From the NCBI RefSeq assembly GCF_001735745.1, contig NZ_CP017260.1, forward strand, positions 660,001-692,000: a DNA stretch of 32,000 bases. The letters run 5' to 3'. Below the pieces are notes generated by a model. That model made no database searches. It saw only the letters and a list, made by a program, of their open reading frames with translations, and had not been told where the DNA came from. Shown here piece after piece: positions 3,934 through 24,744 of the stretch; the stretch's first letter is position 1; each line of letters begins with the position of its first letter. Both the position numbers and the translations under genes were made by a program. Source of the stretch: Formosa sp. Hel1_33_131 (GTDB lineage: Bacteria > Bacteroidota > Bacteroidia > Flavobacteriales > Flavobacteriaceae).

Positions 3934-4701
3934 TTGAAAACACTTTTTAAGTTTATTTTAAATTTAATACCACGGCCGATACTCATTAAATTGAGCTATG
4001 TCGCCCAACCCTTTCTCGTTTTATTTTTAAAAGGCACCACCTACACAGACCCAATTGATGGCAAGAGTTTCCGAAAGTTCTTACCTTATGGGTATGGGAA
4101 ACAACGTGAGAATGTCCTCTCACCTTCTACCCTTTCACTGGAACGCCACCGTTTATTGTGGTTGTATCTGAAAAATGAAACCGACTTTTTTAGCACCCCA
4201 AAAAAAGTATTGCATTTTGCTCCCGAGCAAGCGTTTCATAAACAGTTCAAAAAAATAAACCATTTTGATTATGTGACTACCGATCTGAATTCTCCCATTG
4301 CAATGGTGAAAGCCGATATTTGTAAGCTCCCATTTGAGTCTGACAGTTTTGATGTTATTTTGTGTAATCATGTGCTTGAGCATATTTTGGACGATACCAC
4401 AGCCATGCAAGAGCTTTACCGGGTGATGCGTCCGGGAGGAATGGGGATCTTTCAAATTCCACAAGATTTAAATCGCGAGACTACTTTTGAGAATCATAGT
4501 ATTACTGATAAAAAAGAGCGTACCAAAATTTTTGGACAGTATGACCACGTGCGGATTTATGGACGTGATTACTTTGACACGCTAAGATCGGTTGGTTTTA
4601 AAGTGGATGAAGTGGATTATACAGCTACATTATCTGATCAAGAAATTGACAAATACAGATTGGCTAAAGGCGAAATTATTCCTGTGGTTTATAAAATGTA
4701 A
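3934..4701 (+). CDS. Class I SAM-dependent methyltransferase
   Basis: 255 aa with a TTG start. Methyltransferase-type-11-like blocks are present: VLHFAPE, DVILCNHVLEHI, LYRVMRPGGMGIF. Confidence 0.75.
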   Translation: MKTLFKFILNLIPRPILIKLSYVAQPFLVLFLKGTTYTDPIDGKSFRKFLPYGYGKQRENVLSPSTLSLERHRLLWLYLKNETDFFSTPKKVLHFAPEQAFHKQFKKINHFDYVTTDLNSPIAMVKADICKLPFESDSFDVILCNHVLEHILDDTTAMQELYRVMRPGGMGIFQIPQDLNRETTFENHSITDKKERTKIFGQYDHVRIYGRDYFDTLRSVGFKVDEVDYTATLSDQEIDKYRLAKGEIIPVVYKM

Positions 4702-4724
4702 TTCAACGACATTATATCTAAAAA

Positions 4725-5240
4725 CTAAGCTTTATCACTATCAAAATTATGATTGGCAAAATTATGGCATTCTACAATATCATTTATCTTTTCAAGTCCG
4801 TTCGGACCTAGCCATCTTGTATTGAATGACTTCAGCACTTTTTGTTGCCCATTCTCATCAACAACACTTAGTATAATAGATTTTTTTAAAGAAAAAAAAC
4901 TTAGTTGTTTTTTTTTCTTTAGTTTATGATTACTATATACTTTTAAAATTTTTATGTTTTGTTTTCTAAAAACTACATTTTTTTTAAAATTTGGAAAAAA
5001 TGTTTCAATAACAAGCCCATTTTTATCATTTGATATTCTTAAGAAAAAGGGGGACTCAAAAACTTCAAAAAAAAGCGTAAACAAAATCAAAAAAATAGAT
5101 AAATTTTGTAATACTTTAAAACCATAATTCAACTCTATAACAAGTCTAAAAATAGAAGTAACAATTAGTACTATCAATGAAATAAAAATAACGTATTTCC
5201 TTAGACTAAGATACTTTACAAAAATATTTCTGTTTGTCAT
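4725..5240 (-). CDS. Uncharacterised membrane protein (two N-terminal TM helices plus a Lys-rich soluble domain). Last gene of the peptide-toxin operon
   Basis: 171 aa. Hydrophobic segments are YVIFISLIVLIVTSIFRLVI and LSIFLILFTLFFEVF. It lies 25 nt downstream of the PCAT gene on the same strand. The coding sequence is very AT-rich with many homopolymer runs. Confidence 0.5.
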   Translation of the reverse strand: MTNRNIFVKYLSLRKYVIFISLIVLIVTSIFRLVIELNYGFKVLQNLSIFLILFTLFFEVFESPFFLRISNDKNGLVIETFFPNFKKNVVFRKQNIKILKVYSNHKLKKKKQLSFFSLKKSIILSVVDENGQQKVLKSFNTRWLGPNGLEKINDIVECHNFANHNFDSDKA

Positions 5241-5265
5241 TCGATTTAATGATTTGGGGTGGCTG

Positions 5266-7440
5266 TTAAACCAATATTTCTTTCCAAAATAAACTGTAAA
5301 AATTATTGGTTTTCATTAATTCATCATGCGTTCCAAAGTTAGATATAATTCCGTTTTCCAAAACATAAATTCGGTTAGCAATTTTCGGTAATGAATGCAA
5401 TCTATGAGATATGAAAATAATAGTCAATTCAGATTTTAGTTTATTTAATAAATCTAAAACAAACTTCTCTGTTTTTCTGTCCATTGCCGAGGTAAACTCA
5501 TCCAATAATAAAACCTTTGGTTTTTTGTATAAAGCACGCATTAAAGCAATCAATTGTTTTTGTCCACCAGAAAGATTAATGCCTTCTTCACCCAAAATGG
5601 TGGCATAACTTTGCGGTAAAGTGTTTATAAAAATTTCAAAACCGTAATCTTGACAAAATTTTACAATATTTTCAGGTGTATCTTCTTTGCCTAAAAGAAT
5701 ATTGGTAATAACATTACCGCCAAATATAGTGACGTCTTGAGGTACAACACCCAAAATAGTACGCCAACTTTTTGTGTCTATATCAAAAAAATTAATTTTA
5801 TTGTTGATGATTATTGCTCCGTTTTCAAAAGCATAGAATTTTTGTAAGACTTGACCTAACGTGCTTTTACCGCTACCACTTTCGCCAACTATGGCAATAC
5901 ACTCGTTTTTATTTACTCTGATGTTTATGTCTTTCAATAATTGACTTCTACCAGCAAATCGGAAAGACAAGTTTTTAATTTCAAGCGAATTGAAGTCTGA
6001 AATTTCCATATTCCCTTTTTGCTCTTTTTCCATAGAAGCAAACTCATACATTCTGTTAAAGGCCACTTTTGCTTCATTGATTGGAATGGTTATTAAAGCC
6101 AAACTAGCCACAGATGGCAATAAACTACCTGCAACGCCTAAAACTGCCATTAATTCTCCCAATTGCATAACTTCATTATAGACTTGAATAGAAGTGTAAC
6201 CCAAAATACTCATTAAGAAAAGCACACTAAATACACCTGAAAAAACAGATAAACGTACATTTATTTTACCGAGGTTAAAGGATTTCTCTTGAAAACTCCC
6301 ATAGATGAGTTGGTTTATCTTTTGAAAGATTGTTTGCCTATTATTATTTTTTACGGCGGCTATACCTTGCATTGATGTAATATAATTGCTCTCACTAAAA
6401 GCGTAGCCTTGCATCACTTCTTTTTGAGCAGTTATGATGCGTTTGTTAAAACTATAAATGAGGATAAAATAAAAAGGTAAACTAATAGAAGCGATTAAGC
6501 CTGTTTGCCAAGAATAGTAAAATAGAAAACCTAATGAAACAATAGTAACTAACGCATTAATAACCACATTACCCACAATCTGACTAATAACACGCTGCAC
6601 ACGTTGCGTATCGTTCAAACGGGCAACGAGCTCACCAATTTTACGCGTATCAAAAAAGGGCTTTGGTAAATTTAACAGCGAAGAATAAAAACGATCTACA
6701 ATACGGTTGTTAAAATCTTTGGTTTGGCGAATGAGAAAATAATCTCGTAAAGCAGTAAACAAAACTCTAATCAATAACAAAAAGGCAACGAGAGCAATGC
6801 CTGTAATAAGTTTTGTGAAATCTTTTGAGGGTAAAATATCATCAATTAATTTTTGCGAAAATATAGCCATTGCCATACCCAAAATAGCAATAGCTAAACC
6901 CAACAACACACTAAAAGAGATTAAACGATAATCTTCCTTGAGCAATTTTAAAAACCATTTTTTTTTGTTTTTGCTTTGGGTTTCGGTTTTTATAAAATTT
7001 TTGTTTGGCGTAAGTGTAAGGCAGGTTTTTGATTTCCAAATGCTTTCTAATTCCTCTTTGGTGTAAGTCGTGATTCCTTTTGCTGGGTCACCAATGATAA
7101 ATTTGTCATTTATATATCCATAACAAACCACATAATGCTGTAAACGTTCTTCAATGACCACATGTAAAATTAATGGCTCTTTGTGGTCTATGATAGCTTG
7201 TAAGTCCGCTTCGTTTCCTTTCGCTGAAAACCCTATTTGATTAGCTGCTTGAAACAATCCTAAAAGCGTAGTCCCTTGTTTTGTTGTTCCACTTAATTCA
7301 CGAAGTTTCTCTAAATGGTTTGAGCCTCCATAATATTGAATTAATGATAGCAAACAAGCAACTCCACAATCGGACTGGTCGTGTTGTAATGTAAAAGTCT
7401 GTTGTAATTCTTTTTGAGAGAGTTTGATAGTTTTACTCAT
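5266..7440 (-). CDS. Peptidase-C39-domain ABC transporter (PCAT), a double-glycine leader processing and export ATPase
   Basis: 724 aa. The N-terminal C39 domain has a catalytic Cys (QSDCGVACL), His (LQHYVVCYG) and DPAKG. A six-helix ABC membrane domain follows. The NBD carries Walker A GESGSGKST, Q-loop VPQD, signature LSGGQKQ, Walker B VLLLDEFTSAMD and H-loop ISHRL. Confidence 0.9.
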   Translation of the reverse strand: MSKTIKLSQKELQQTFTLQHDQSDCGVACLLSLIQYYGGSNHLEKLRELSGTTKQGTTLLGLFQAANQIGFSAKGNEADLQAIIDHKEPLILHVVIEERLQHYVVCYGYINDKFIIGDPAKGITTYTKEELESIWKSKTCLTLTPNKNFIKTETQSKNKKKWFLKLLKEDYRLISFSVLLGLAIAILGMAMAIFSQKLIDDILPSKDFTKLITGIALVAFLLLIRVLFTALRDYFLIRQTKDFNNRIVDRFYSSLLNLPKPFFDTRKIGELVARLNDTQRVQRVISQIVGNVVINALVTIVSLGFLFYYSWQTGLIASISLPFYFILIYSFNKRIITAQKEVMQGYAFSESNYITSMQGIAAVKNNNRQTIFQKINQLIYGSFQEKSFNLGKINVRLSVFSGVFSVLFLMSILGYTSIQVYNEVMQLGELMAVLGVAGSLLPSVASLALITIPINEAKVAFNRMYEFASMEKEQKGNMEISDFNSLEIKNLSFRFAGRSQLLKDINIRVNKNECIAIVGESGSGKSTLGQVLQKFYAFENGAIIINNKINFFDIDTKSWRTILGVVPQDVTIFGGNVITNILLGKEDTPENIVKFCQDYGFEIFINTLPQSYATILGEEGINLSGGQKQLIALMRALYKKPKVLLLDEFTSAMDRKTEKFVLDLLNKLKSELTIIFISHRLHSLPKIANRIYVLENGIISNFGTHDELMKTNNFYSLFWKEILV

Positions 7441-7960
7441 TTTGTTGTAAAGCTCTTAAAACACCTTTGACATTGAGTTGACCTTTATGTTTTTTTATGA
7501 GCTCTTGGTTTTTATCGTAGATTAATACATAAGGAATAGATGTAGCATCAAATTGACTAGAAAAAAGGCTATTGTTATCATATAAAAATGTGATGTTTTG
7601 TTGATTGTAAAAATTGTATTGTTTTGAAAAATTTTGAATGACTTCAATCGATTCTGTAGATACAAAAACGAATTGTACATTTTTAAAGCTATCTAAATTA
7701 TCGCTAATGTTTTGCGCCTCATAGTGGCAAAAATCGCAGTCACTATTAAAGTAAATAAAAATAGCATTTAAGTTTGGTTTTAGGTCCGCTTTTGTAAACG
7801 GTTGTTGCTCTAGGGTAAAGAATTCAAACTCCGGTATGGTTTGAAGTTGTTCCGCTATTGCCTTTTTTTCTTTAGCTTTAATTATGATGTTATAACCTAG
7901 GTAGGATAACAAACCTAAAACACCAATTACAACTATAAAGAAGATTAATTTTTTAAACAT
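7433..7960 (-). CDS. Membrane-anchored thioredoxin-fold (TlpA/redoxin-like) thiol:disulfide oxidoreductase
   Basis: 175 aa. It has an N-terminal TM anchor (LIFFIVVIGVLGLLSYLGY), a CxxC motif (NSDCDFCHYE) and redoxin-like downstream blocks (VQFVFVS, IPYVLIYD). Its stop overlaps the PCAT start by 8 nt (AAATGAGTAA). Confidence 0.7.
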   Translation of the reverse strand: MFKKLIFFIVVIGVLGLLSYLGYNIIIKAKEKKAIAEQLQTIPEFEFFTLEQQPFTKADLKPNLNAIFIYFNSDCDFCHYEAQNISDNLDSFKNVQFVFVSTESIEVIQNFSKQYNFYNQQNITFLYDNNSLFSSQFDATSIPYVLIYDKNQELIKKHKGQLNVKGVLRALQQNE

Positions 7961-7962
7961 AA

Positions 7963-8631
7963 TTAACTCATATTAAGTGTGAAGAACATTACTCCAACGA
8001 CCCAAATAAGTAGAGCAACCCCATAACTACTTGCAACAATAGAAAAACCTTTAGAGGTAGTGGTTTTAAGTTCTTTACTAATTAGGGAAGCTAAAATAAA
8101 CCAATAAGCGAATTCAAATAGATTGATGACTTGAAACGGATAGATGAACCACGTTTGTAATCCCTCATAGCCTACAATATTAAGTGCCGATAATGGATAG
8201 AAATATTGTAAGTTTTCTAAAGTATAGTCTTGTTGGAAAACATAAAACCATATTGTTTTTAAAATCATTACCCCTAAAAAAACAAAATCGGCCTTTGTTA
8301 CTATATTAAAAAGTTTTTTATACTTAATTTCTTTATCAAAAAAGAAACAACCTACATCTAATATTAAGGCAATGATAGAAATTTTAATTATAAGTAATAG
8401 AGGCAATAACAAATAAGCAATCCATTCCCATTTTTGTTGAAAATTTAGTGCTTTTTCTATTTGTTTTGTAGTAAGCTGCTCAGCTAAAGAATTAATTACT
8501 AATTCCTCTGTGTTAAGTAACTCTTTAGAAATAAACCCTAAAAAAAAACTAAAAGCAGTAAGAAAAAATAGTTTTTCATTTACAAAGTGAAAATATAAAA
8601 GGGTAAATATATTGTTGATACATTTACCCAT
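7963..8631 (-). CDS. Multipass integral membrane protein of unknown function (candidate immunity or accessory protein)
   Basis: 222 aa with an ATG start and about 5 hydrophobic helices. It has only 2 Cys and no CxxC, so it is not VKOR-like. The EExxxR and His motifs of CPBP/Abi proteases are absent. A 2 nt gap separates it from the thioredoxin-fold gene. Confidence 0.6.
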   Translation of the reverse strand: MGKCINNIFTLLYFHFVNEKLFFLTAFSFFLGFISKELLNTEELVINSLAEQLTTKQIEKALNFQQKWEWIAYLLLPLLLIIKISIIALILDVGCFFFDKEIKYKKLFNIVTKADFVFLGVMILKTIWFYVFQQDYTLENLQYFYPLSALNIVGYEGLQTWFIYPFQVINLFEFAYWFILASLISKELKTTTSKGFSIVASSYGVALLIWVVGVMFFTLNMS

Positions 8632-8646
8632 ATTAATAACTAAAGT

Positions 8647-8814
8647 TTATTTAGTCTTATTTTTATTAATAAAAAATAAATTAACTAAAGAAATAACTAA
8701 TGCTAATATTGACCATATATTATCAATAATTTTTTCTTCATTGATTATCAAATACACAAATATTAATATTATAATAATACAGTTGAGAAAAATCAGTTTT
8801 TTTATATTAGTCAT
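8647..8814 (-). CDS. Small two-TM-helix protein, 55 aa, not in the supplied ORF track. Candidate bacteriocin immunity protein
   Basis: Hand translation of the minus strand: MTNIKKLIFLNCIIIILIFVYLIINEEKIIDNIWSILALVISLVNLFFINKNKTK*. The ATG lies 11 nt after the precursor stop, and the ORF's stop lies 15 nt before the next gene's ATG, so it fills the gap exactly. Both ends are Lys-rich and there are two hydrophobic helices. Confidence 0.5.
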   Translation of the reverse strand: MTNIKKLIFLNCIIIILIFVYLIINEEKIIDNIWSILALVISLVNLFFINKNKTK

Positions 8815-8825
8815 AATACAAAGTA

Positions 8826-9011
8826 TTAGTTAGCAATACAACCATCCACAACTCCAACTGATGCAACTGCAACAGAAGCAATAAAAGCCCAACCAATGGG
8901 ACCAGCTAGTGCGCCTATTATTATAGTAGCAGCATAAGATCCAACTGCTATACCACAAGAAACATCACCACCTTGTAAATTTTCCATTTGATTTAATTTT
9001 AATGTTTTCAT
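8826..9011 (-). CDS. Double-glycine-leader bacteriocin precursor peptide (class II-like, unmodified apart from a probable disulfide)
   Basis: 61 aa. The leader MKTLKLNQMENLQGG has hydrophobic residues at -4, -7, -12 and -15. The core is DVSCGIAVGSYAATIIIGALAGPIGWAFIASVAVASVGVVDGCIAN, 46 aa, with Cys4 and Cys43 and several GxxxG motifs. It is the first gene of an operon that contains a C39 PCAT. Confidence 0.8.
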   Translation of the reverse strand: MKTLKLNQMENLQGGDVSCGIAVGSYAATIIIGALAGPIGWAFIASVAVASVGVVDGCIAN

Positions 9012-9079
9012 AATATATAAATTAAGTTATAAAATGTTGCCTTCATGATTTGGGGCAACTATCCAACTATTAGACGTAC

Positions 9080-9110
9080 CAAATCTATAAACTAAAATTT
9101 AAAAAACAAA
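9080..9110 (-). promoter_or_regulatory. Candidate Bacteroidota sigma-A-type promoter for the peptide-toxin operon
   Basis: On the minus strand, TTTG (9110-9107) is followed by 19 nt and then TAGATTTG (9087-9080), which fits -33 TTTG / -7 TAnnTTTG. It sits about 70 nt upstream of the precursor ATG. Confidence 0.35.
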
Positions 9111-9481
9111 AAATTAACACATAAAAACCTGTATATCAATATATTGTGAATTTATTTTTATTAATTTGGTTCAATTATTGTGAAAATTGTTTAAACAAAA
9201 TAAATAGTGTGTATTTTATATTTTTTACCCAGCTAGTCAATTGAATATTAGTGTGAAAAATAAATTTAAAATAGTAACTATTTTTGGATTTTTTGTTTAA
9301 TAATTGTAGGAACTGTTTATTCAAAAAAATAGTTGTTTTAAGAAGATATAAGCTGTTATCCTAGTAACTAACACTGTTTAAAACAGGCAAAGGACAGAAG
9401 AATTGTAAAATTTATATATTATAGTTGGTTTGAAAGAAGTAAAACCAAGCAGTATTAAAACTTAACGTTTTTAAAATTATA

Positions 9482-10456
9482 CTAATTTTCTGGAAACCCA
9501 TTAAACACCTCTGTTTCGAGTTGATTATCTTCGGTAACAAAAGCAATAAAGACTTTTAATTCCGTGTGCATCTTAAGAAATACGCTGATTTCTTCTACTT
9601 CCATGGCTTGAATTGCAGTAGCATAGGCATCTGCAATCATACAAGATTGAGCAATGACCGATACGGTCAATATATTAGAACGGATTGGATAGCCTGTTTG
9701 GGTATCAATTATATGTGTATAGCGATTGCCTTCTGCATCAAATTTAATTTTACGATAAGTTCCAGAGGTTGCCATGGATTCATTTTCGAGGGCTAAAGTC
9801 GTTATATAGCGTTTATCGCTCTCTAGATTGGGGTGTTGAACGCCAACTTTCCATTGTGTATTCTTAACGGAGTTAATGCCTTTGGTACGAATTTCACCCC
9901 CTATTTCAATTAAATAATTTTGAATGTTTTTAGCTTCTAAATAGCGTCCGATTACATCGACGCCGTATCCTTTGGCAATGGCATTAAAATCTAATCGAGT
10001 TGCTTTTGGTTTCGAAATAACGCCCTTACTAAGCGTAACTTTATCCATTCCTACAGACAGCATGAGTTCGTGGATTTTAAGACTGTCTAAGGCTTCTATT
10101 TTTCCTTCAGGTCCAAAATCCCATGCATTGACTACAGCGCCAATCGTAGGATCAAATTTGCCTCGTGTCGCGGTGTGAATTTCTTTTGATGTATTGAAAA
10201 CTTTCTCAAAATGATGGTCGATAACCACCGGGTCATTTGCATTTACTTTTGAAATATCAGAACTAGAAATGTATGTAGACATAGAACGATTAACTTCAAA
10301 AAACAGACTGTCAAATGCAGTTTCATGATTTTCGCTACTCTCATAAAGAATTGAGTAGGTCGTTCCAAAAACAGAACCAGCCGCCCGTAATTGTTCTGAT
10401 TGATTCGAACAAGATACAAGTGCTAAAAAAATAAATAATAAATAATTTTTAATCAT
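9482..10456 (-). CDS. apbE: FAD:protein FMN transferase (ApbE family) lipoprotein
   Basis: 324 aa. Lipoprotein signal with lipobox LVSC. ApbE-type blocks include FDPTIGAVVNAW, NAIAKGYGVD and MATSGTYRK. It lies downstream of the nqr operon, whose NqrB and NqrC subunits it would flavinylate. Confidence 0.9.
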   Translation of the reverse strand: MIKNYLLFIFLALVSCSNQSEQLRAAGSVFGTTYSILYESSENHETAFDSLFFEVNRSMSTYISSSDISKVNANDPVVIDHHFEKVFNTSKEIHTATRGKFDPTIGAVVNAWDFGPEGKIEALDSLKIHELMLSVGMDKVTLSKGVISKPKATRLDFNAIAKGYGVDVIGRYLEAKNIQNYLIEIGGEIRTKGINSVKNTQWKVGVQHPNLESDKRYITTLALENESMATSGTYRKIKFDAEGNRYTHIIDTQTGYPIRSNILTVSVIAQSCMIADAYATAIQAMEVEEISVFLKMHTELKVFIAFVTEDNQLETEVFNGFPEN

Positions 10457-20874: not shown

Positions 20875-22251
20875 TTAATCAAAAGCTTGAGTTCCTCCTA
20901 CATGTACTTCTTGCACGTTGTAAATATCGTAGTGTGGAGAATCTGTATGGGTTGCCCCAAAGTAATCAGTAAAGGTTTTAGTGTAGGTGTTTCTTACATA
21001 CACAATAACCTTGAGTTCATTGGTATCATCTATATTAGTTGGCAAATCAAGTCCTGTAATGGTTCGTGTAAAAACGCCGCCTGCTGTTGTGCTAGAACTC
21101 ACAATAACGTCTCCTAATTGACCCGTAAAAACTTCTCGTAAAACATCTCTGTGCACATAGTTAGCTCCATCAGAAGAACCCTCTTGCGGAGTAGAAGTTG
21201 TGACGTTGTCTTCCGCTAAATAGATCATTAATTTAATTTCTTCAGAGGGAGTCGATTTGAACCCAACTTTGACCTCTAAATCTAATCTACCTCCTACAAT
21301 AACTGCCTGCACTGCCAAACCAACAGTTGCATCCTCCGCCAATTCTGCATTGACTTGTGCCATATTTGGGAAATTCCATCTCGTATCCGGCCCATTAACA
21401 TAAAGCGTTGGAAATCCAGTGACATTATAGTAGTCTGACCAGTAAGCTGTTTCTGGAATTTCCATGGGTTCTTGAGTACTTGAACTACTTGCGTGATAGC
21501 CAACTCCGAATATATTTGAATTTCCATTTACAGCGTTTGTGACTGCCGCACCCGCAGGTGGACATTGTGAACACCATGTTCCTGTAAAATCTTCTAAAAG
21601 TGCTTTTTTAGTAAATGTAGTAGGAGCTCCGGTAGCAGAAAAAGAATTCGTATCACTATAAGGAGATGAAGGTTGAATAACAAAACTTACCGCATTAGAC
21701 GTTAACCCTTCAAAAGTTGCTATAAAATCGTATGTACCGTTTACCGTAAATGGGTACGGATTGGTGGTCGTAACCGTTCCATTTACTGTCACTTCTGCCT
21801 CTGATGTAACTGTATTATTAAAGTTGTCTTTGACCACAAAAGTTGCTGATTCTCCGTTAAGATAATAGTTCTGATCAAAACTTAGAACAATACTCGTCGG
21901 AGCTTCATCCACCACTGTAACTGTTATTTCATTAGAAGTTAAGTCTTTATAATTAGCTACCACTTTGAACGTTCCTTCTGAACTAAGTAAGATAGGATTC
22001 GTAGCAGCAACGCCGTCTAGTTTAAAAGTGGATTGACTGGACAAATCTTCATCTGAATTGCCTTTAACGACAAATACGACCTGAGAGCCCGTGTTGACAT
22101 CGGTAACAACCGTTGATAAAGTGATGGAAGTTACTGGATCGACACCAGTTCCGCCGCCGCCGCCATTGTCGCCGCCCTTATCATCGCTTTTAGAACAACT
22201 AAATACTAAAAATCCGATGAGGATAAATTTTAAAAAAATAAGTTTTTTCAT
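20875..22251 (-). CDS. Surface or periplasmic lipoprotein with two tandem Ig-like repeats and a C-terminal Omp28-related, thioredoxin-like domain carrying CxxC
   Basis: 458 aa. It has a lipobox (LVFSC) and a Gly-rich linker. Two repeats of about 80 aa are related (PVTSITLS...TFKVVANYKDLTSNEITVTV against APTSIVLS...TYDFIATFEGLTSNAVSFVI). The redox motif is EDFTGTWCSQCPP. Confidence 0.6.
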   Translation of the reverse strand: MKKLIFLKFILIGFLVFSCSKSDDKGGDNGGGGGTGVDPVTSITLSTVVTDVNTGSQVVFVVKGNSDEDLSSQSTFKLDGVAATNPILLSSEGTFKVVANYKDLTSNEITVTVVDEAPTSIVLSFDQNYYLNGESATFVVKDNFNNTVTSEAEVTVNGTVTTTNPYPFTVNGTYDFIATFEGLTSNAVSFVIQPSSPYSDTNSFSATGAPTTFTKKALLEDFTGTWCSQCPPAGAAVTNAVNGNSNIFGVGYHASSSSTQEPMEIPETAYWSDYYNVTGFPTLYVNGPDTRWNFPNMAQVNAELAEDATVGLAVQAVIVGGRLDLEVKVGFKSTPSEEIKLMIYLAEDNVTTSTPQEGSSDGANYVHRDVLREVFTGQLGDVIVSSSTTAGGVFTRTITGLDLPTNIDDTNELKVIVYVRNTYTKTFTDYFGATHTDSPHYDIYNVQEVHVGGTQAFD

Positions 22252-22376
22252 AACGTTATGTTAAATTAATAATTAAATAGATTTTTTTGTTAACACAATA
22301 TTATGAAAAAAATCATTAAAACTAAGGAGTTTTAACAAAATAATGATAAGTTTGTGCTGAATATAAAAAAATTGTT

Positions 22377-22859
22377 ATGAAAAAAATTATATATATTTTA
22401 GTATTTAGTTTAAACTTCGCTCTTTTCGCACAAGAACAATTACCCAACACAACTCTTAAAACACTTTCAGGCTCCAACACAACCCTCACTGAAATTGCAG
22501 AAGACAATGACCTTATCGTTGTTTCTCTATGGGCCACATGGTGTGTTCCCTGTAAAAACGAATTAGATGCCGTTGCAGATGTTTATGATGATTGGGTTTC
22601 AGAAACAGGCGTAAAATACTACGCAGTTTCTATTGACGATTCCAGAACTGCCAAACGGGTAAAACCAATGATTAATGGTAAAGGTTGGGAGTTTGAAATT
22701 TTACTTGATGAAAACAGTGATTTAAAACGTGCCTTTGGAGTCAGTACAGTTCCTTACACAATTATCGTTAAGTCAGGTGAAATTGTTTACAAACACACTG
22801 GTTATACCCCAGGCTATGAAGATGAACTTTACGATCAAATCGTAGCTTTTAAAAATTAA
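22377..22859 (+). CDS. TlpA-family periplasmic thiol:disulfide oxidoreductase (thioredoxin fold)
   Basis: 160 aa with a signal peptide (ALFA/QEQ), the WATWCVPCKNEL active site, and VPYTIIV containing the cis-Pro. Confidence 0.85.
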   Translation: MKKIIYILVFSLNFALFAQEQLPNTTLKTLSGSNTTLTEIAEDNDLIVVSLWATWCVPCKNELDAVADVYDDWVSETGVKYYAVSIDDSRTAKRVKPMINGKGWEFEILLDENSDLKRAFGVSTVPYTIIVKSGEIVYKHTGYTPGYEDELYDQIVAFKN

Positions 22860-22959
22860 TTTTTAGAATTTACCCGAATACGCTACAAAACGAAAAAATG
22901 CTTTGATAGCCTTTCAAAATTAATATCATATTCTATCTAAATTTATAAAACGTATTAAA

Positions 22960-24744
22960 ATGAATAAACATATATACACAATCCTTGTTTTTTTTATTTC
23001 AGTAGCGATCCACTCACAGGAAACGGAAGAAAAAAGTAGGTTTGATGAAATTAGTGAACGTCTCAATGTTAGCATAGAGTCTAATGGGCAATGGTATTTG
23101 AATGATGAAAAGTTTGAAGATTTTGATGAAGAGGAAAGATTAAGGGCTAATAGTTATTTAAGAATCGATTATCAAATTTCAGATCGTTTTTCTAGTGGAT
23201 TTCAATTAGAAAGTTATGTTCCAGAACCTTTACTGAATTACAGTAAAATATTTGATAAAGAGATAGGCTTAGGAACCTTCTATCTAAATTACAGTACGAA
23301 AAAATTGGACATTACGCTTGGACATTATTATGTCCAGTTTGGAAGTGGACTTATTTTACGTACTTGGGAAGACCGCGCTCTGGGAGTCAATAATGCACTG
23401 AGAGGTGGGAAGATTGTTTATGACCCAACGAATTCCTTACGATTAACAGCACTTTATGGCAAACAACGAAAAGGATTTGACGTCTCGGACTCTGAAGTTT
23501 TTGGATTTGAGACTCAATTTGACATTGCGGATGCTTTTCAGCTAGAAAACCTTAACAGCCTCAAACTAGGACTAAGTTATGTAGGAAAACAAGAACGCTA
23601 TAATAAAGAGAGTCTTATTGGAGGTTCTCAACCCACAATTGAGATACCCGAACTTGTGAATGCATTTGGAGCGTATCTAGATTTAGAATACAAAAATTTA
23701 TACTCCAACTTTGAATATATATATAAAAGTAAAGATGCGCGTCTTAATAACGTGATTCCAAATATAGTATCATTTTCAGAAGAAGCCTTATTTGATGGGA
23801 ATGCAATTACATGGAATGCTGGCTATTCTCAAAAAGGTTTTGGAATTGGTTATACCTTTAGACGACTTGAAAATATGCGCTTCTTTTCCGAGAGAAGTGC
23901 TCTAAATCTTAACAACAATCCAACAACTCAGCTGAGTATGAACTACTTACCTGCATTGACCAAACAACATGATTATACACTTGCAAACATCTATATATAT
24001 CAAGCCCAACCAGGGTTAGTTATTGAAAATTATGGCACTCCATTAATCAAATCTGGGGAAATTGGACATTCCGTAGATGTGTTTTATAAAATAAAAAAAG
24101 GAACTCTTTTAGGAGGTAAATACGGTACAAAACTGAATGTAAATTGGTCTTATTGGGCAAATCTCACAACGAGTTATTCCGATCCTTCTGGAACACTTTA
24201 TTTTACTGGAGATGATTTAACTTATGAAACAGAACTATTGAATTTTGATGACAAGCTGTATTCAGAAATCAATGCAGAAATACGCAAGAAATGGTCTCCA
24301 AAATTAAAATCCATTTTCACCTATATAAACCTCAATTACAACAAAGGGTTTTTAGAATCTAAAGGAGCTGATGATTTTGTAAATGCTTGGATTGGAATTG
24401 CAGAAAGCACCTATAAATTTCAAGGAGGTAAATCCGTTCGATTGGAGTTACAACACCTTTCTACAAACGATGATGCCCGAAACTGGGCAGGAGGCACAAT
24501 AGAGTATTTTTTTAATTCAAAGTTTGGAATCTATTTAAATGATTCTTATAACTATGAGGAGAGTAAGATTACCGAAAACACTGAAATTCATTTCTTTAAT
24601 TTTGGAGGAAGTTTCACGAAAGGCTCCACCCGTGTGGGGATCAACTACGGACGGCAACGAGGGGGATTACTTTGCGTAGGTGGTGTCTGTAGACCGGTTA
24701 GTAAAAACACAGGGGTAACTCTTAATTTTGTGACTACTTTTTAA
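22960..24744 (+). CDS. Putative outer-membrane beta-barrel protein (DUF6029-like)
   Basis: 594 aa with a signal peptide. It is rich in alternating aromatic/polar beta-strand patterns and ends in an aromatic residue (VTTF). It has a C-terminal CVGGVC pair. The family assignment is from memory only. Confidence 0.5.
   Translation: MNKHIYTILVFFISVAIHSQETEEKSRFDEISERLNVSIESNGQWYLNDEKFEDFDEEERLRANSYLRIDYQISDRFSSGFQLESYVPEPLLNYSKIFDKEIGLGTFYLNYSTKKLDITLGHYYVQFGSGLILRTWEDRALGVNNALRGGKIVYDPTNSLRLTALYGKQRKGFDVSDSEVFGFETQFDIADAFQLENLNSLKLGLSYVGKQERYNKESLIGGSQPTIEIPELVNAFGAYLDLEYKNLYSNFEYIYKSKDARLNNVIPNIVSFSEEALFDGNAITWNAGYSQKGFGIGYTFRRLENMRFFSERSALNLNNNPTTQLSMNYLPALTKQHDYTLANIYIYQAQPGLVIENYGTPLIKSGEIGHSVDVFYKIKKGTLLGGKYGTKLNVNWSYWANLTTSYSDPSGTLYFTGDDLTYETELLNFDDKLYSEINAEIRKKWSPKLKSIFTYINLNYNKGFLESKGADDFVNAWIGIAESTYKFQGGKSVRLELQHLSTNDDARNWAGGTIEYFFNSKFGIYLNDSYNYEESKITENTEIHFFNFGGSFTKGSTRVGINYGRQRGGLLCVGGVCRPVSKNTGVTLNFVTTF

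Follow-up and report, generated by a model that had tools for sequence, protein, structure and literature searches.

Background

The closest described relatives of the system treated here are the bacteroidetocins. The system is a peptide operon in a 32,000-nucleotide (nt) stretch of genomic DNA from the marine bacterium Formosa sp. Hel1_33_131 (contig NZ_CP017260.1, positions 660,001 to 692,000; called the window below), and its first gene, FORMB_06100, encodes a 61-residue precursor peptide. In Bacteroides, four genes encoding a five-transmembrane (TM) protein, a peptide with a double-glycine (GG) leader, a thiol oxidoreductase and a C39 peptidase-containing ATP-binding cassette (ABC) transporter (PCAT) are necessary for the production of the toxins bacteroidetocin A and B and are sufficient for it in E. 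coli (PMC6671954). None of the bacteroidetocin fragments derived from the leader, many began right after the GG, and gel migration was redox-dependent (PMC6671954). Peptides with a GG leader of 15-16 residues, at least two cysteines and the ancillary genes nearby were classed as bacteroidetocin-like; iterative tblastn returned 19 peptides in four Bacteroidetes classes, including Flavobacterium, Tenacibaculum, Elizabethkingia and a Flavobacteriaceae metagenome-assembled genome (MAG) (PMC6671954). One of the external loops of BamA has an aspartate through which bacteroidetocins A, B and D exert their action (PMC8546649). A survey pipeline for class II microcins has been reported not to capture bacteroidetocins (PMC12219008).

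Formosa sp. Hel1_33_131 is a model of flavobacterial succession in North Sea algal blooms; it has been studied for polysaccharide use and hardly for interference competition. Our literature search found nothing on the hydrophobic flavobacterial peptides described below or on this Formosa locus.

We hereby propose that FORMB_06100 encodes the precursor of a disulfide-only ribosomal peptide of the class II bacteriocin/microcin kind, belonging to a bacteroidetocin-type operon on a low-GC island, and we give this reading a probability of roughly two in three. We are more confident that the product is a PCAT-processed, exported peptide with a disulfide, and less confident that it is an antibacterial toxin for which a co-encoded 55-residue protein provides immunity. 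The cluster type as such is already known, having been published as the bacteroidetocin system (PMC6671954); what is new is the class of anionic or neutral Gly/Ala hairpin cores bracketed by two cysteines, the breadth of this class and its near-total lack of annotation, and the small two-TM open reading frame (ORF) associated with it.

Results

The precursor and its core

The precursor is read on the minus strand from 9011 to 8826, with an ATG at 9011 and a stop codon at 8826-8828, and has the sequence MKTLKLNQMENLQGGDVSCGIAVGSYAATIIIGALAGPIGWAFIASVAVASVGVVDGCIAN; the plus-strand translation of 8826-9011 contains many stops. In GenBank the protein (FORMB_06100, AOR27663.1) is annotated as "hypothetical protein", and the identical protein was found on 11 contigs. 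Among the small ORFs of the window it is the only GG-leader-like one. The initial annotation of the window had given its coordinates and sequence with the strand unstated, and both match exactly on the reverse complement. The features of the locus, by position in the window, are the following.

8967-9011, minus strand: leader peptide of the double-glycine type, 15 residues, MKTLKLNQMENLQGG, defined from the translation and the family consensus
8829-8966, minus strand: 46-residue core DVSC...DGCIAN, rich in Gly, Ala, Val and Ile, with Cys4 and Cys43 and a predicted helical-hairpin fold, defined from the translation, the structural model and the family
8647-8814, minus strand: 55-residue ORF with two predicted TM helices, candidate immunity protein, starting 11 nt past the precursor stop
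7963-8631, minus strand: multi-pass membrane protein, 222-residue ORF, 100% identical to FORMB_06090
7433-7960, minus strand: membrane-anchored thioredoxin-fold thiol:disulfide oxidoreductase, 175 residues, C75-D-F-C78, FORMB_06080, assigned from Pfam
5266-7440, minus strand: PCAT, 724 residues, FORMB_06070, its start overlapping the upstream gene by 8 nt
4725-5240, minus strand: 171-residue ORF, FORMB_06060, whose N-terminal TM helices are followed by a soluble tail; it lies 25 nt downstream of the PCAT gene, and its membership in the operon is uncertain
9080-9110, minus strand: candidate promoter of the Bacteroidetes type, TTTG-N19-TAGATTTG, located some 69 nt upstream of the precursor ATG

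Leaders of PCAT substrates are about 15-25 residues long, end in GG or in GA/GS, and carry hydrophobic residues at positions -4, -7, -12 and -15; a transporter whose C39 domain has the Cys/His/Asp residues is encoded nearby. MKTLKLNQMENLQGG has this length and ending, its hydrophobic residues counted back from the GG are L(-4), M(-7), L(-12) and M(-15), with an additional L(-10), and such a transporter is encoded in the same operon. The core that cleavage after the GG would release has cysteines at positions 4 and 43 only and charged residues at Asp1 and Asp41 only, with a net charge of -2. Gly, Ala, Val and Ile make up 67% of it, its grand average of hydropathy (GRAVY) is 1.51, and the GxxxG motifs GIAVG, GALAG and GVVDG occur in it together with a central GPIGW. 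Its computed monoisotopic mass is 4316.2 Da in the oxidised and 4318.2 Da in the reduced form. Our recount of the leader and of the core, including the motifs, the central GPIGW and the anionic or neutral charge, agrees in every checkable point with the initial annotation.

AlphaFold2, run on the core alone as a single sequence, predicts two helices, at residues 2-20 and 23-45, separated by a break at Ala21-Gly22 that directly precedes Pro23, with a mean predicted local distance difference test (pLDDT) of 84. The model is compatible with the helical hairpin that had been predicted for the core, and the ends of such a hairpin are probably tied by the disulfide. A Foldseek search with the core model against the PDB gave one non-significant match, the two-helix photosystem II subunit PsbZ (E=9.6).

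A bacteroidetocin-type operon

The precursor gene opens a compact minus-strand operon, in which the 55-residue ORF, the membrane protein, the thioredoxin-fold protein, the PCAT and the 171-residue ORF follow in this order. All six ORFs are intact in the window; the spacing is tight (gaps of 11 nt and 2 nt and an overlap of 8 nt), and the layout is kept in 10 close loci.

The exporter matches Peptidase_C39 (1.5e-33), ABC_membrane and ABC_tran of Pfam, as well as TIGR01193 (2e-118), and its full-length alignment with the solved PCAT1 (4RY2) has E=4e-112. The motifs DCG, HYVV (HxVV) and GDPA are kept at C25, H102 and D118, with Walker A at 519, LSGGQ at 623 and Walker B at 644. Because the catalytic Cys/His/Asp motifs and the Walker and signature motifs are all intact, the protein can be classed by its sequence as an active-type C39 transporter and not as one with a degenerate C39-like domain. 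The initial annotation had postulated a C39 peptidase as the partner of the precursor, and a full-length PCAT with the catalytic motifs is in fact encoded in the same operon. Elsewhere in the genome there is a second C39 peptidase gene, FORMB_08090, whose product was recorded at low abundance in 2 of 9 proteome columns; the strain may hold another GG-leader export system.

The thioredoxin-like protein FORMB_06080 matches Pfam AhpC-TSA (E=6e-12) and, weakly, a ResA-like family; no solved relative was detected by sequence at E<=1e-4. The initial annotation is silent on this gene. All 83 unique homologous sequences keep its CxxC motif, in the form C-[DE]-[FY]-C, and 81 of them have a hydrophobic anchor at the N-terminus. 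A CxxC protein accompanies the membrane-protein gene in 90 of 94 fetched loci and, in the loci with listed genes, is encoded directly after it or one extra ORF later. In Mesoflavibacter (locus L011, 6627-7067) and Gaetbulibacter (L014, 6773-7201), an ORF of about 145 residues without a known family lies between these two genes; it is absent from the Formosa operon.

The membrane protein FORMB_06090 has no Pfam family. Its start is uncertain, because the relatives are called at 205-210 residues. Its family comprises 927 clusters at 50% identity (E<=1e-3). Proteins 50-74% identical to it occur in Winogradskyella, Gaetbulibacter, Mesoflavibacter, Aquimarina, Kordia, Tenacibaculum and Flavobacterium, and homologues are also found in Chitinophagaceae, Saprospiraceae and Paludibacter assemblies; this protein is far more conserved than the precursor peptide. 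Among plasmids, tblastn returned a single distant match, in Flammeovirga. We considered a role as a DsbB/VKOR-like re-oxidase and rejected it as unlikely because none of the invariant or near-invariant columns of the family is a cysteine.

When this locus is set beside the bacteroidetocin-like loci, the window peptide has a 15-residue GG leader and two cysteines (Cys4 and Cys43), and genes for a multi-pass TM orthologue, a thiol oxidoreductase and a PCAT are adjacent to it. The link to the published system is provided by HGW-Bacteroidetes-13, a genome listed in PMC6671954 (our locus L049): the window membrane protein is 58% identical (E=8e-77) and the thioredoxin-like protein 40% identical (E=1e-43) to their counterparts there, and the gene order is the same (precursors, a 69-residue ORF, the membrane protein, the thioredoxin-like protein, the PCAT). 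Two precursors are encoded in L049. The shorter one ends in CWNT and is presumably the published bacteroidetocin-like ORF2; the one immediately upstream is a hydrophobic two-cysteine peptide of the window type with a leader ending in AG. As gene content and accessory-protein homology agree, we assign the Formosa operon on this sequence evidence to the bacteroidetocin type. It shares with the bacteroidetocin loci the 15-16-residue GG leader, cysteine-containing mature peptides of 42-48 residues, the set of multi-pass TM, peptide, thiol oxidoreductase and PCAT genes, hosts among the Bacteroidota including Flavobacteriia, and a location on acquired DNA. It differs in that the peptide gene comes first and is followed by the extra 55-residue two-TM ORF. 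The peptides, compared by their described properties, also differ: bacteroidetocins A and B are cationic (+2/+6), with 12-13 hydrophobic residues and four cysteines, whereas the window core has a net charge of -2, two end cysteines and a predicted hairpin resembling TM segments.

A wide family of cysteine-bracketed cores

The DNA of loci with homologous membrane-protein genes was scanned with a leader pattern that required G[GA]; the leader statistics are therefore partly circular, and the cysteine statistics are not. The scan returned 84 unique GG-leader precursors in 58 loci, mostly from Flavobacteriaceae, usually 1-3 in tandem just upstream of the membrane-protein gene. The leader consensus is MK[KT]LELNQMENLxGG, with L/I/V at -4, M/L at -7, L/I/M at -12 and M at -15, so that the hydrophobic positions of the window leader are conserved family-wide; in the 72 leaders of 15 residues the GG is invariant, as far as a pattern demanding G[GA] can tell. 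Pairwise identity is 58% for the leaders and 25% for the cores; shuffling the cores at constant composition gives 22%. The initial annotation had mentioned neither this family nor the bacteroidetocin system.

Exactly two cysteines are present in 76 of the 84 unique cores; by median, the first is at position 5, the second is fourth from the C-terminus, and their spacing is 37 residues. In 65 of these 76 cores both cysteines lie within 12 residues of the ends, where random placement gives an expectation of 10.9 (maximum 21 in 2000 permutations). No other feature of the hypervariable core is conserved as strongly as this bracketing cysteine pair. Between the cysteines, Gly (21%) and Ala (20%) together account for 41% of the residues and Leu, Val and Ile for 28%, while Lys and Arg reach 0.7%; the net charge of the cores ranges from -5 to +2 and is mostly 0 or below. 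A profile search of protein databases gave 84 hits, 80 of them new beyond the first search, and 72 of these 80 have exactly two cysteines; the named hits are almost all "hypothetical protein". One hit (P0320), which shares 69% identity with the window peptide, retains SC..., GP[IF]GW and VVDGCIA. With 84 cores contributed by the genome loci and 80 by the protein search, about 160 distinct cores of this class were recovered, and almost all of them carry the annotation "hypothetical protein".

Several other peptides and small genes were seen in these loci. A shorter precursor subfamily has cores of 33-41 residues ending in C-W-N/D or similar (…ECWNG, …CWNS, …CWNT) and often stands in tandem with a long Gly/Ala-rich precursor; it occurs in L049 (whose two precursors lie at 791-979 and 996-1142), L057, L064, L068, L069, L078, L079 and L082. 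In a Winogradskyella MAG (L029, 2191-2349 and 2386-2550), two cysteine-free GG-leader peptides with 37-residue cores and net charges of -4 and -5 are encoded upstream of a normal two-cysteine precursor, and may make up a class IIb-like two-peptide pair exported by the same transporter. An identical 67-residue precursor is found in a Paludibacter sp. MAG (L074, 1131-1334) and in Flavobacterium frigoris (L076, 4513-4716), with thioredoxin-like ORFs equal in length and phmmer E-value; this identity across records assigned to different orders points either to recent horizontal transfer or to a mis-binned contig. Three Flavobacterium loci (L051, 255-428; L065, 4570-4746; L067, 4684-4857) carry a small, putatively TatA-like gene of the form MGRLG(T/S)TEI…FGGK(K/R)IP(E/D)LMKGLG…; its place in L065 and L067 is after the precursor(s) and before the membrane-protein gene.

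Close relatives and allele variation

Close homologues of the precursor are rare: only four were found among 5.8 billion proteins, at 82-93% identity. The initial annotation had made its reading depend on the conservation of the GG and of the two cysteines, and all four close alleles, like the wider family, retain them. Between the GG and the first cysteine the four vary, with DVSC, DC or GC. The same operon is present at the same genomic position on ten metagenomic contigs, and the cluster DNA shared by the close strains is mostly 96-100% identical. Against L001, L002 and L007, the differences in the precursor gene cluster in codons 5-25 (8937-9000, minus strand), a stretch that takes in the leader end and about 10 residues at the start of the core. 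Most of these differences change the amino acid, and an in-frame 6-nt indel is among them; the remaining core codons are identical among the close alleles save for one synonymous change. This hot spot, seen in four alleles only, could be due to diversifying selection or to local recombination.

In the closest relative (L001, 8366-9585, on a 327-kb metagenomic contig, precursor 93% identical), the membrane-protein and thioredoxin-like genes are not called intact, and an 84-residue fragment is followed by a gap; this points either to frameshift errors in the assembly or to decay of the accessory genes.

The small ORFs

The 55-residue ORF is absent from the NCBI annotation and has the same or almost the same sequence in each of the 10 close loci. 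Because phmmer with this ORF and with the 171-residue ORF found no relatives outside the Formosa lineage, both are connected to the system by their position. For the 55-residue ORF, topology, position, the 11-nt spacing, which suggests expression coupled to that of the precursor, and a lineage-specific sequence make it a candidate immunity factor. A hydrophobic ORF with at least one predicted TM segment stands between the last precursor and the membrane-protein gene in 33 of 47 other loci, and in about 20 of these 33 it has 50-75 residues and two predicted TM helices. The 171-residue ORF gave no match in the family-model scans. It is limited to the closest lineage and is missing in the L002 lineage, where the PCAT gene abuts the methyltransferase gene.

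Genomic context and upstream region

The GC content of the cluster (about 4700-9500) is 27-33%, compared with 36-40% for the adjoining nqr/apbE and methyltransferase regions; this is consistent with horizontal acquisition. Housekeeping genes border the cluster at both ends: at one end stand apbE and nqrA-F, at the opposite end the genes for a methyltransferase, an M24 peptidase and iPGM. The S-adenosylmethionine (SAM) methyltransferase gene adjoins the cluster at 3934-4701 and is convergent to it. In Mesoflavibacter (L011) the homologous cluster stands beside integrase, TrwB-like, RadC and DNA-methyltransferase genes. A second AhpC/TSA-redoxin gene of the window (22377-22859), between an Omp28-domain gene and a DUF6029 gene (20875-24744), is apparently unrelated to the cluster.

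Upstream of the precursor, the promoter candidate at 9080-9110 follows the pattern TTTG-N18-22-TAnnTTTG, the Bacteroidetes-type consensus, and is suggestive by its position. A scan for sigma-70 promoters and terminators, of a type unsuited to Bacteroidota, stayed at shuffle level. In the presumed 5' untranslated region an inverted repeat, GTTGCC…GGCAAC (9036-9059, minus strand), lies 25-48 nt before the precursor ATG and is kept in the close strains; the fold energy of this hairpin was not distinguishable from that of shuffled sequences (z=-1.6).

Comparison with other peptide classes

The class II double-glycine bacteriocins (PF10439, TIGR03949) resemble the window system in the GG leader, cleavage by a PCAT, a Gly-rich hydrophobic core with GxxxG motifs and the lack of enzymatic modification. 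Unlike it, they are Gram-positive and typically cationic, and have neither a dedicated thiol oxidoreductase nor a Yip1-like TM partner. A strict two-cysteine bracket is not known as a defining feature of these families. Of 54 relatives of the window peptide, 12 match Bacteriocin_IIc, and two Aquimarina members do so above the cut-off (28.0 and 30.0 against 27.1 bits).

The class IIa microcins, such as microcin V, share a Gram-negative host, a 15-residue GG leader, a PCAT, a Gly/Ala-rich and anionic to neutral peptide, a single disulfide and a small membrane immunity protein (compare PMC12219008). They differ in that microcin V has 88 residues and a disulfide closing only a short C-terminal loop, that microcin export uses a membrane-fusion protein and TolC, neither of which is encoded here, and that microcin loci have no thioredoxin-like gene. 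The window peptide did not match the microcin V family PF17508 (threshold 27 bits); 5 of the 54 relatives match it weakly, and two of them, scored singly, reached 21.3 and 17.6 bits, under the 27-bit cut-off. The pediocin-like class IIa bacteriocins also have a GG leader and a PCAT, and in some members a disulfide stabilises a C-terminal hairpin. The window core, unlike theirs, is not cationic; direct reading of its sequence shows no pediocin box YGNGV(X)C, and the accessory genes are different.

Discussion

Taken as a working model, the 15-residue leader would dock in the C39 domain of the PCAT, which would cut after Gly15 and pump the 46-residue core across the inner membrane. In the periplasm the anchored CxxC protein would oxidise Cys4 and Cys43, so that the Gly/Ala-zipper helix-turn-helix hairpin would be stapled as a 40-residue macrocycle; the membrane protein of about 210 residues would be a required accessory, as it is for the bacteroidetocins. 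The released peptide, uncharged to anionic and with the length of a membrane-spanning hairpin, would most likely insert into the membranes of related Flavobacteriia, and the co-transcribed 55-residue two-helix protein would act as the immunity factor of the producer.

Several results weigh against the proposal that FORMB_06100 encodes a bacteriocin of the bacteroidetocin type. No gene for a membrane-fusion protein or an outer-membrane channel was found in the cluster or in the rest of the window, which leaves the outer-membrane route unexplained. In the published proteomes of Formosa Hel1_33_131 (PMC6246565, supplements), the PCAT FORMB_06070 has zero abundance in all 9 columns, and FORMB_06080, FORMB_06090 and FORMB_06100 are missing from the protein lists, while the neighbouring ApbE (FORMB_06110) was detected. 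The promoter candidate is the single match to its pattern in the window, yet 2.4 matches are expected by chance in 32 kb. The window membrane protein is tied to those of Bacteroides transitively, via HGW-Bacteroidetes-13, whose own protein has 36.6-50.3% similarity to them (matrix of PMC6671954). Moreover, the target and activity of the bacteroidetocins, which are cationic, water-soluble, four-cysteine and BamA-binding peptides, are not transferable to this peptide because its core is anionic and extremely hydrophobic. Given that the bacteroidetocin A and B loci carry no immunity gene (PMC6671954), the immunity role of the 55-residue ORF is argued from its position and topology. Finally, the window peptide did not match Pfam PF10439 Bacteriocin_IIc at E<=0.01 (gathering threshold 27.1 bits), and its best family match, to NCBIfam TIGR03949 (lactobin A/cerein 7B), scored 13.8 bits (E=0.037), below the 21.5 cut-off.

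Some of these points would be explained if the processed peptide stayed in the envelope of the producer as a structural or regulatory membrane component, for example together with the Yip1-like membrane protein, and caused no antagonism. The core resembles a two-TM hairpin, its one Foldseek match, although non-significant, is PsbZ, and so hydrophobic a peptide would be poorly soluble if released; the lack of an outer-membrane export component in the cluster or window fits as well, and the trio of membrane protein, thioredoxin-like protein and PCAT is very widespread in Flavobacteriaceae. We nevertheless consider this unlikely, since the cores have diverged to shuffle level while the accessory proteins are still 50-70% identical, a pattern expected of an arms-race effector and not of a conserved structural partner. 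The number of precursors also changes from 1 to 3 per locus, the cluster lies on a low-GC island and beside mobile-element genes in other genera, and the homologous Bacteroides system makes a secreted toxin (PMC6671954). The proteome data could instead mean that the strain acquired the cluster as an island that is now silent or decaying, with a real gene that is not expressed under relevant conditions; the low GC content and the membrane-protein and thioredoxin-like genes not called intact in L001 agree with this. All six ORFs of the window are intact, however, the intact operon recurs on many independent marine metagenome contigs, and proteomes of laboratory monocultures seldom catch bacteriocin systems or low-abundance membrane proteins, so that we rate this explanation as improbable.

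Two further explanations keep the export of the peptide and change its nature. The core might be modified further, by thioether or other crosslinks derived from its cysteines, by enzymes encoded elsewhere, making it a modified member of the ribosomally synthesised and post-translationally modified peptides (RiPPs). Bacteroidota do have GG-leader RiPPs targeted by radical-SAM enzymes, one relative of the window peptide has a weak TIGR04149 match, and a SAM methyltransferase gene adjoins the cluster; but neither the cluster nor the related loci that we examined contain a gene for a radical-SAM enzyme, lanthipeptide synthetase, cyclodehydratase or similar enzyme, and the CxxC oxidoreductase is the sole enzyme that always travels with the precursors. 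We rate such modification as slightly less probable still than a silent island. The methyltransferase was rejected as a tailoring enzyme: it is convergent, it is part of the conserved flank, and it is not beside the cluster in the annotated loci of other genera (L011, L013 and L014). The explanation that we find least probable is export as a signal: the peptide would be a ComC/BlpC-like pheromone or quorum-sensing peptide, processed by the PCAT and sensed by a receptor encoded elsewhere. GG leaders and PCATs also export Gram-positive pheromones, ComA was among the matched PCAT-like solved structures, and the toxicity of the window peptide is a prediction; against this, neither the window nor the related loci have a histidine kinase or response regulator in or beside the cluster, the core would be a 46-residue membrane-like hairpin and not a short soluble peptide, many loci have 2-3 divergent tandem precursors followed by small TM ORFs, which is a toxin and immunity pattern, and some relatives exceed the Pfam Bacteriocin_IIc threshold.

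Beyond the reading of FORMB_06100 as a bacteriocin-like precursor, a broader and more speculative proposal concerns the family as a whole. These peptides might constitute a large unnamed class of Bacteroidota toxins, with a conserved MKxLELNQMENLxGG leader, a hypervariable uncharged Gly/Ala-zipper TM hairpin and a disulfide joining the termini, so that the peptide would be nearly cyclic. They would kill by membrane insertion or through an inner-membrane protein target, and not through BamA; each would have its own fast-evolving two-helix immunity protein, and the changes in codons 5-25 would reflect diversifying selection on specificity. Taken in all its parts, we regard this proposal as tentative and rather doubtful.

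Conclusions

The practical value of these results is moderate, as the kind of system has already been published and the claims are computational. They do supply a genome-mining signature for peptides now filed as "hypothetical": a conserved leader, a free-running hydrophobic core, one cysteine at each end and a dedicated CxxC oxidoreductase. A helical hairpin closed by a disulfide would also be a natural scaffold on which to study the specificity of small membrane-active peptides. If the operon makes an active toxin, it would represent a concrete weapon of Formosa in the succession of algal blooms, and would extend the bacteroidetocin system from gut Bacteroidales to the marine plankton.

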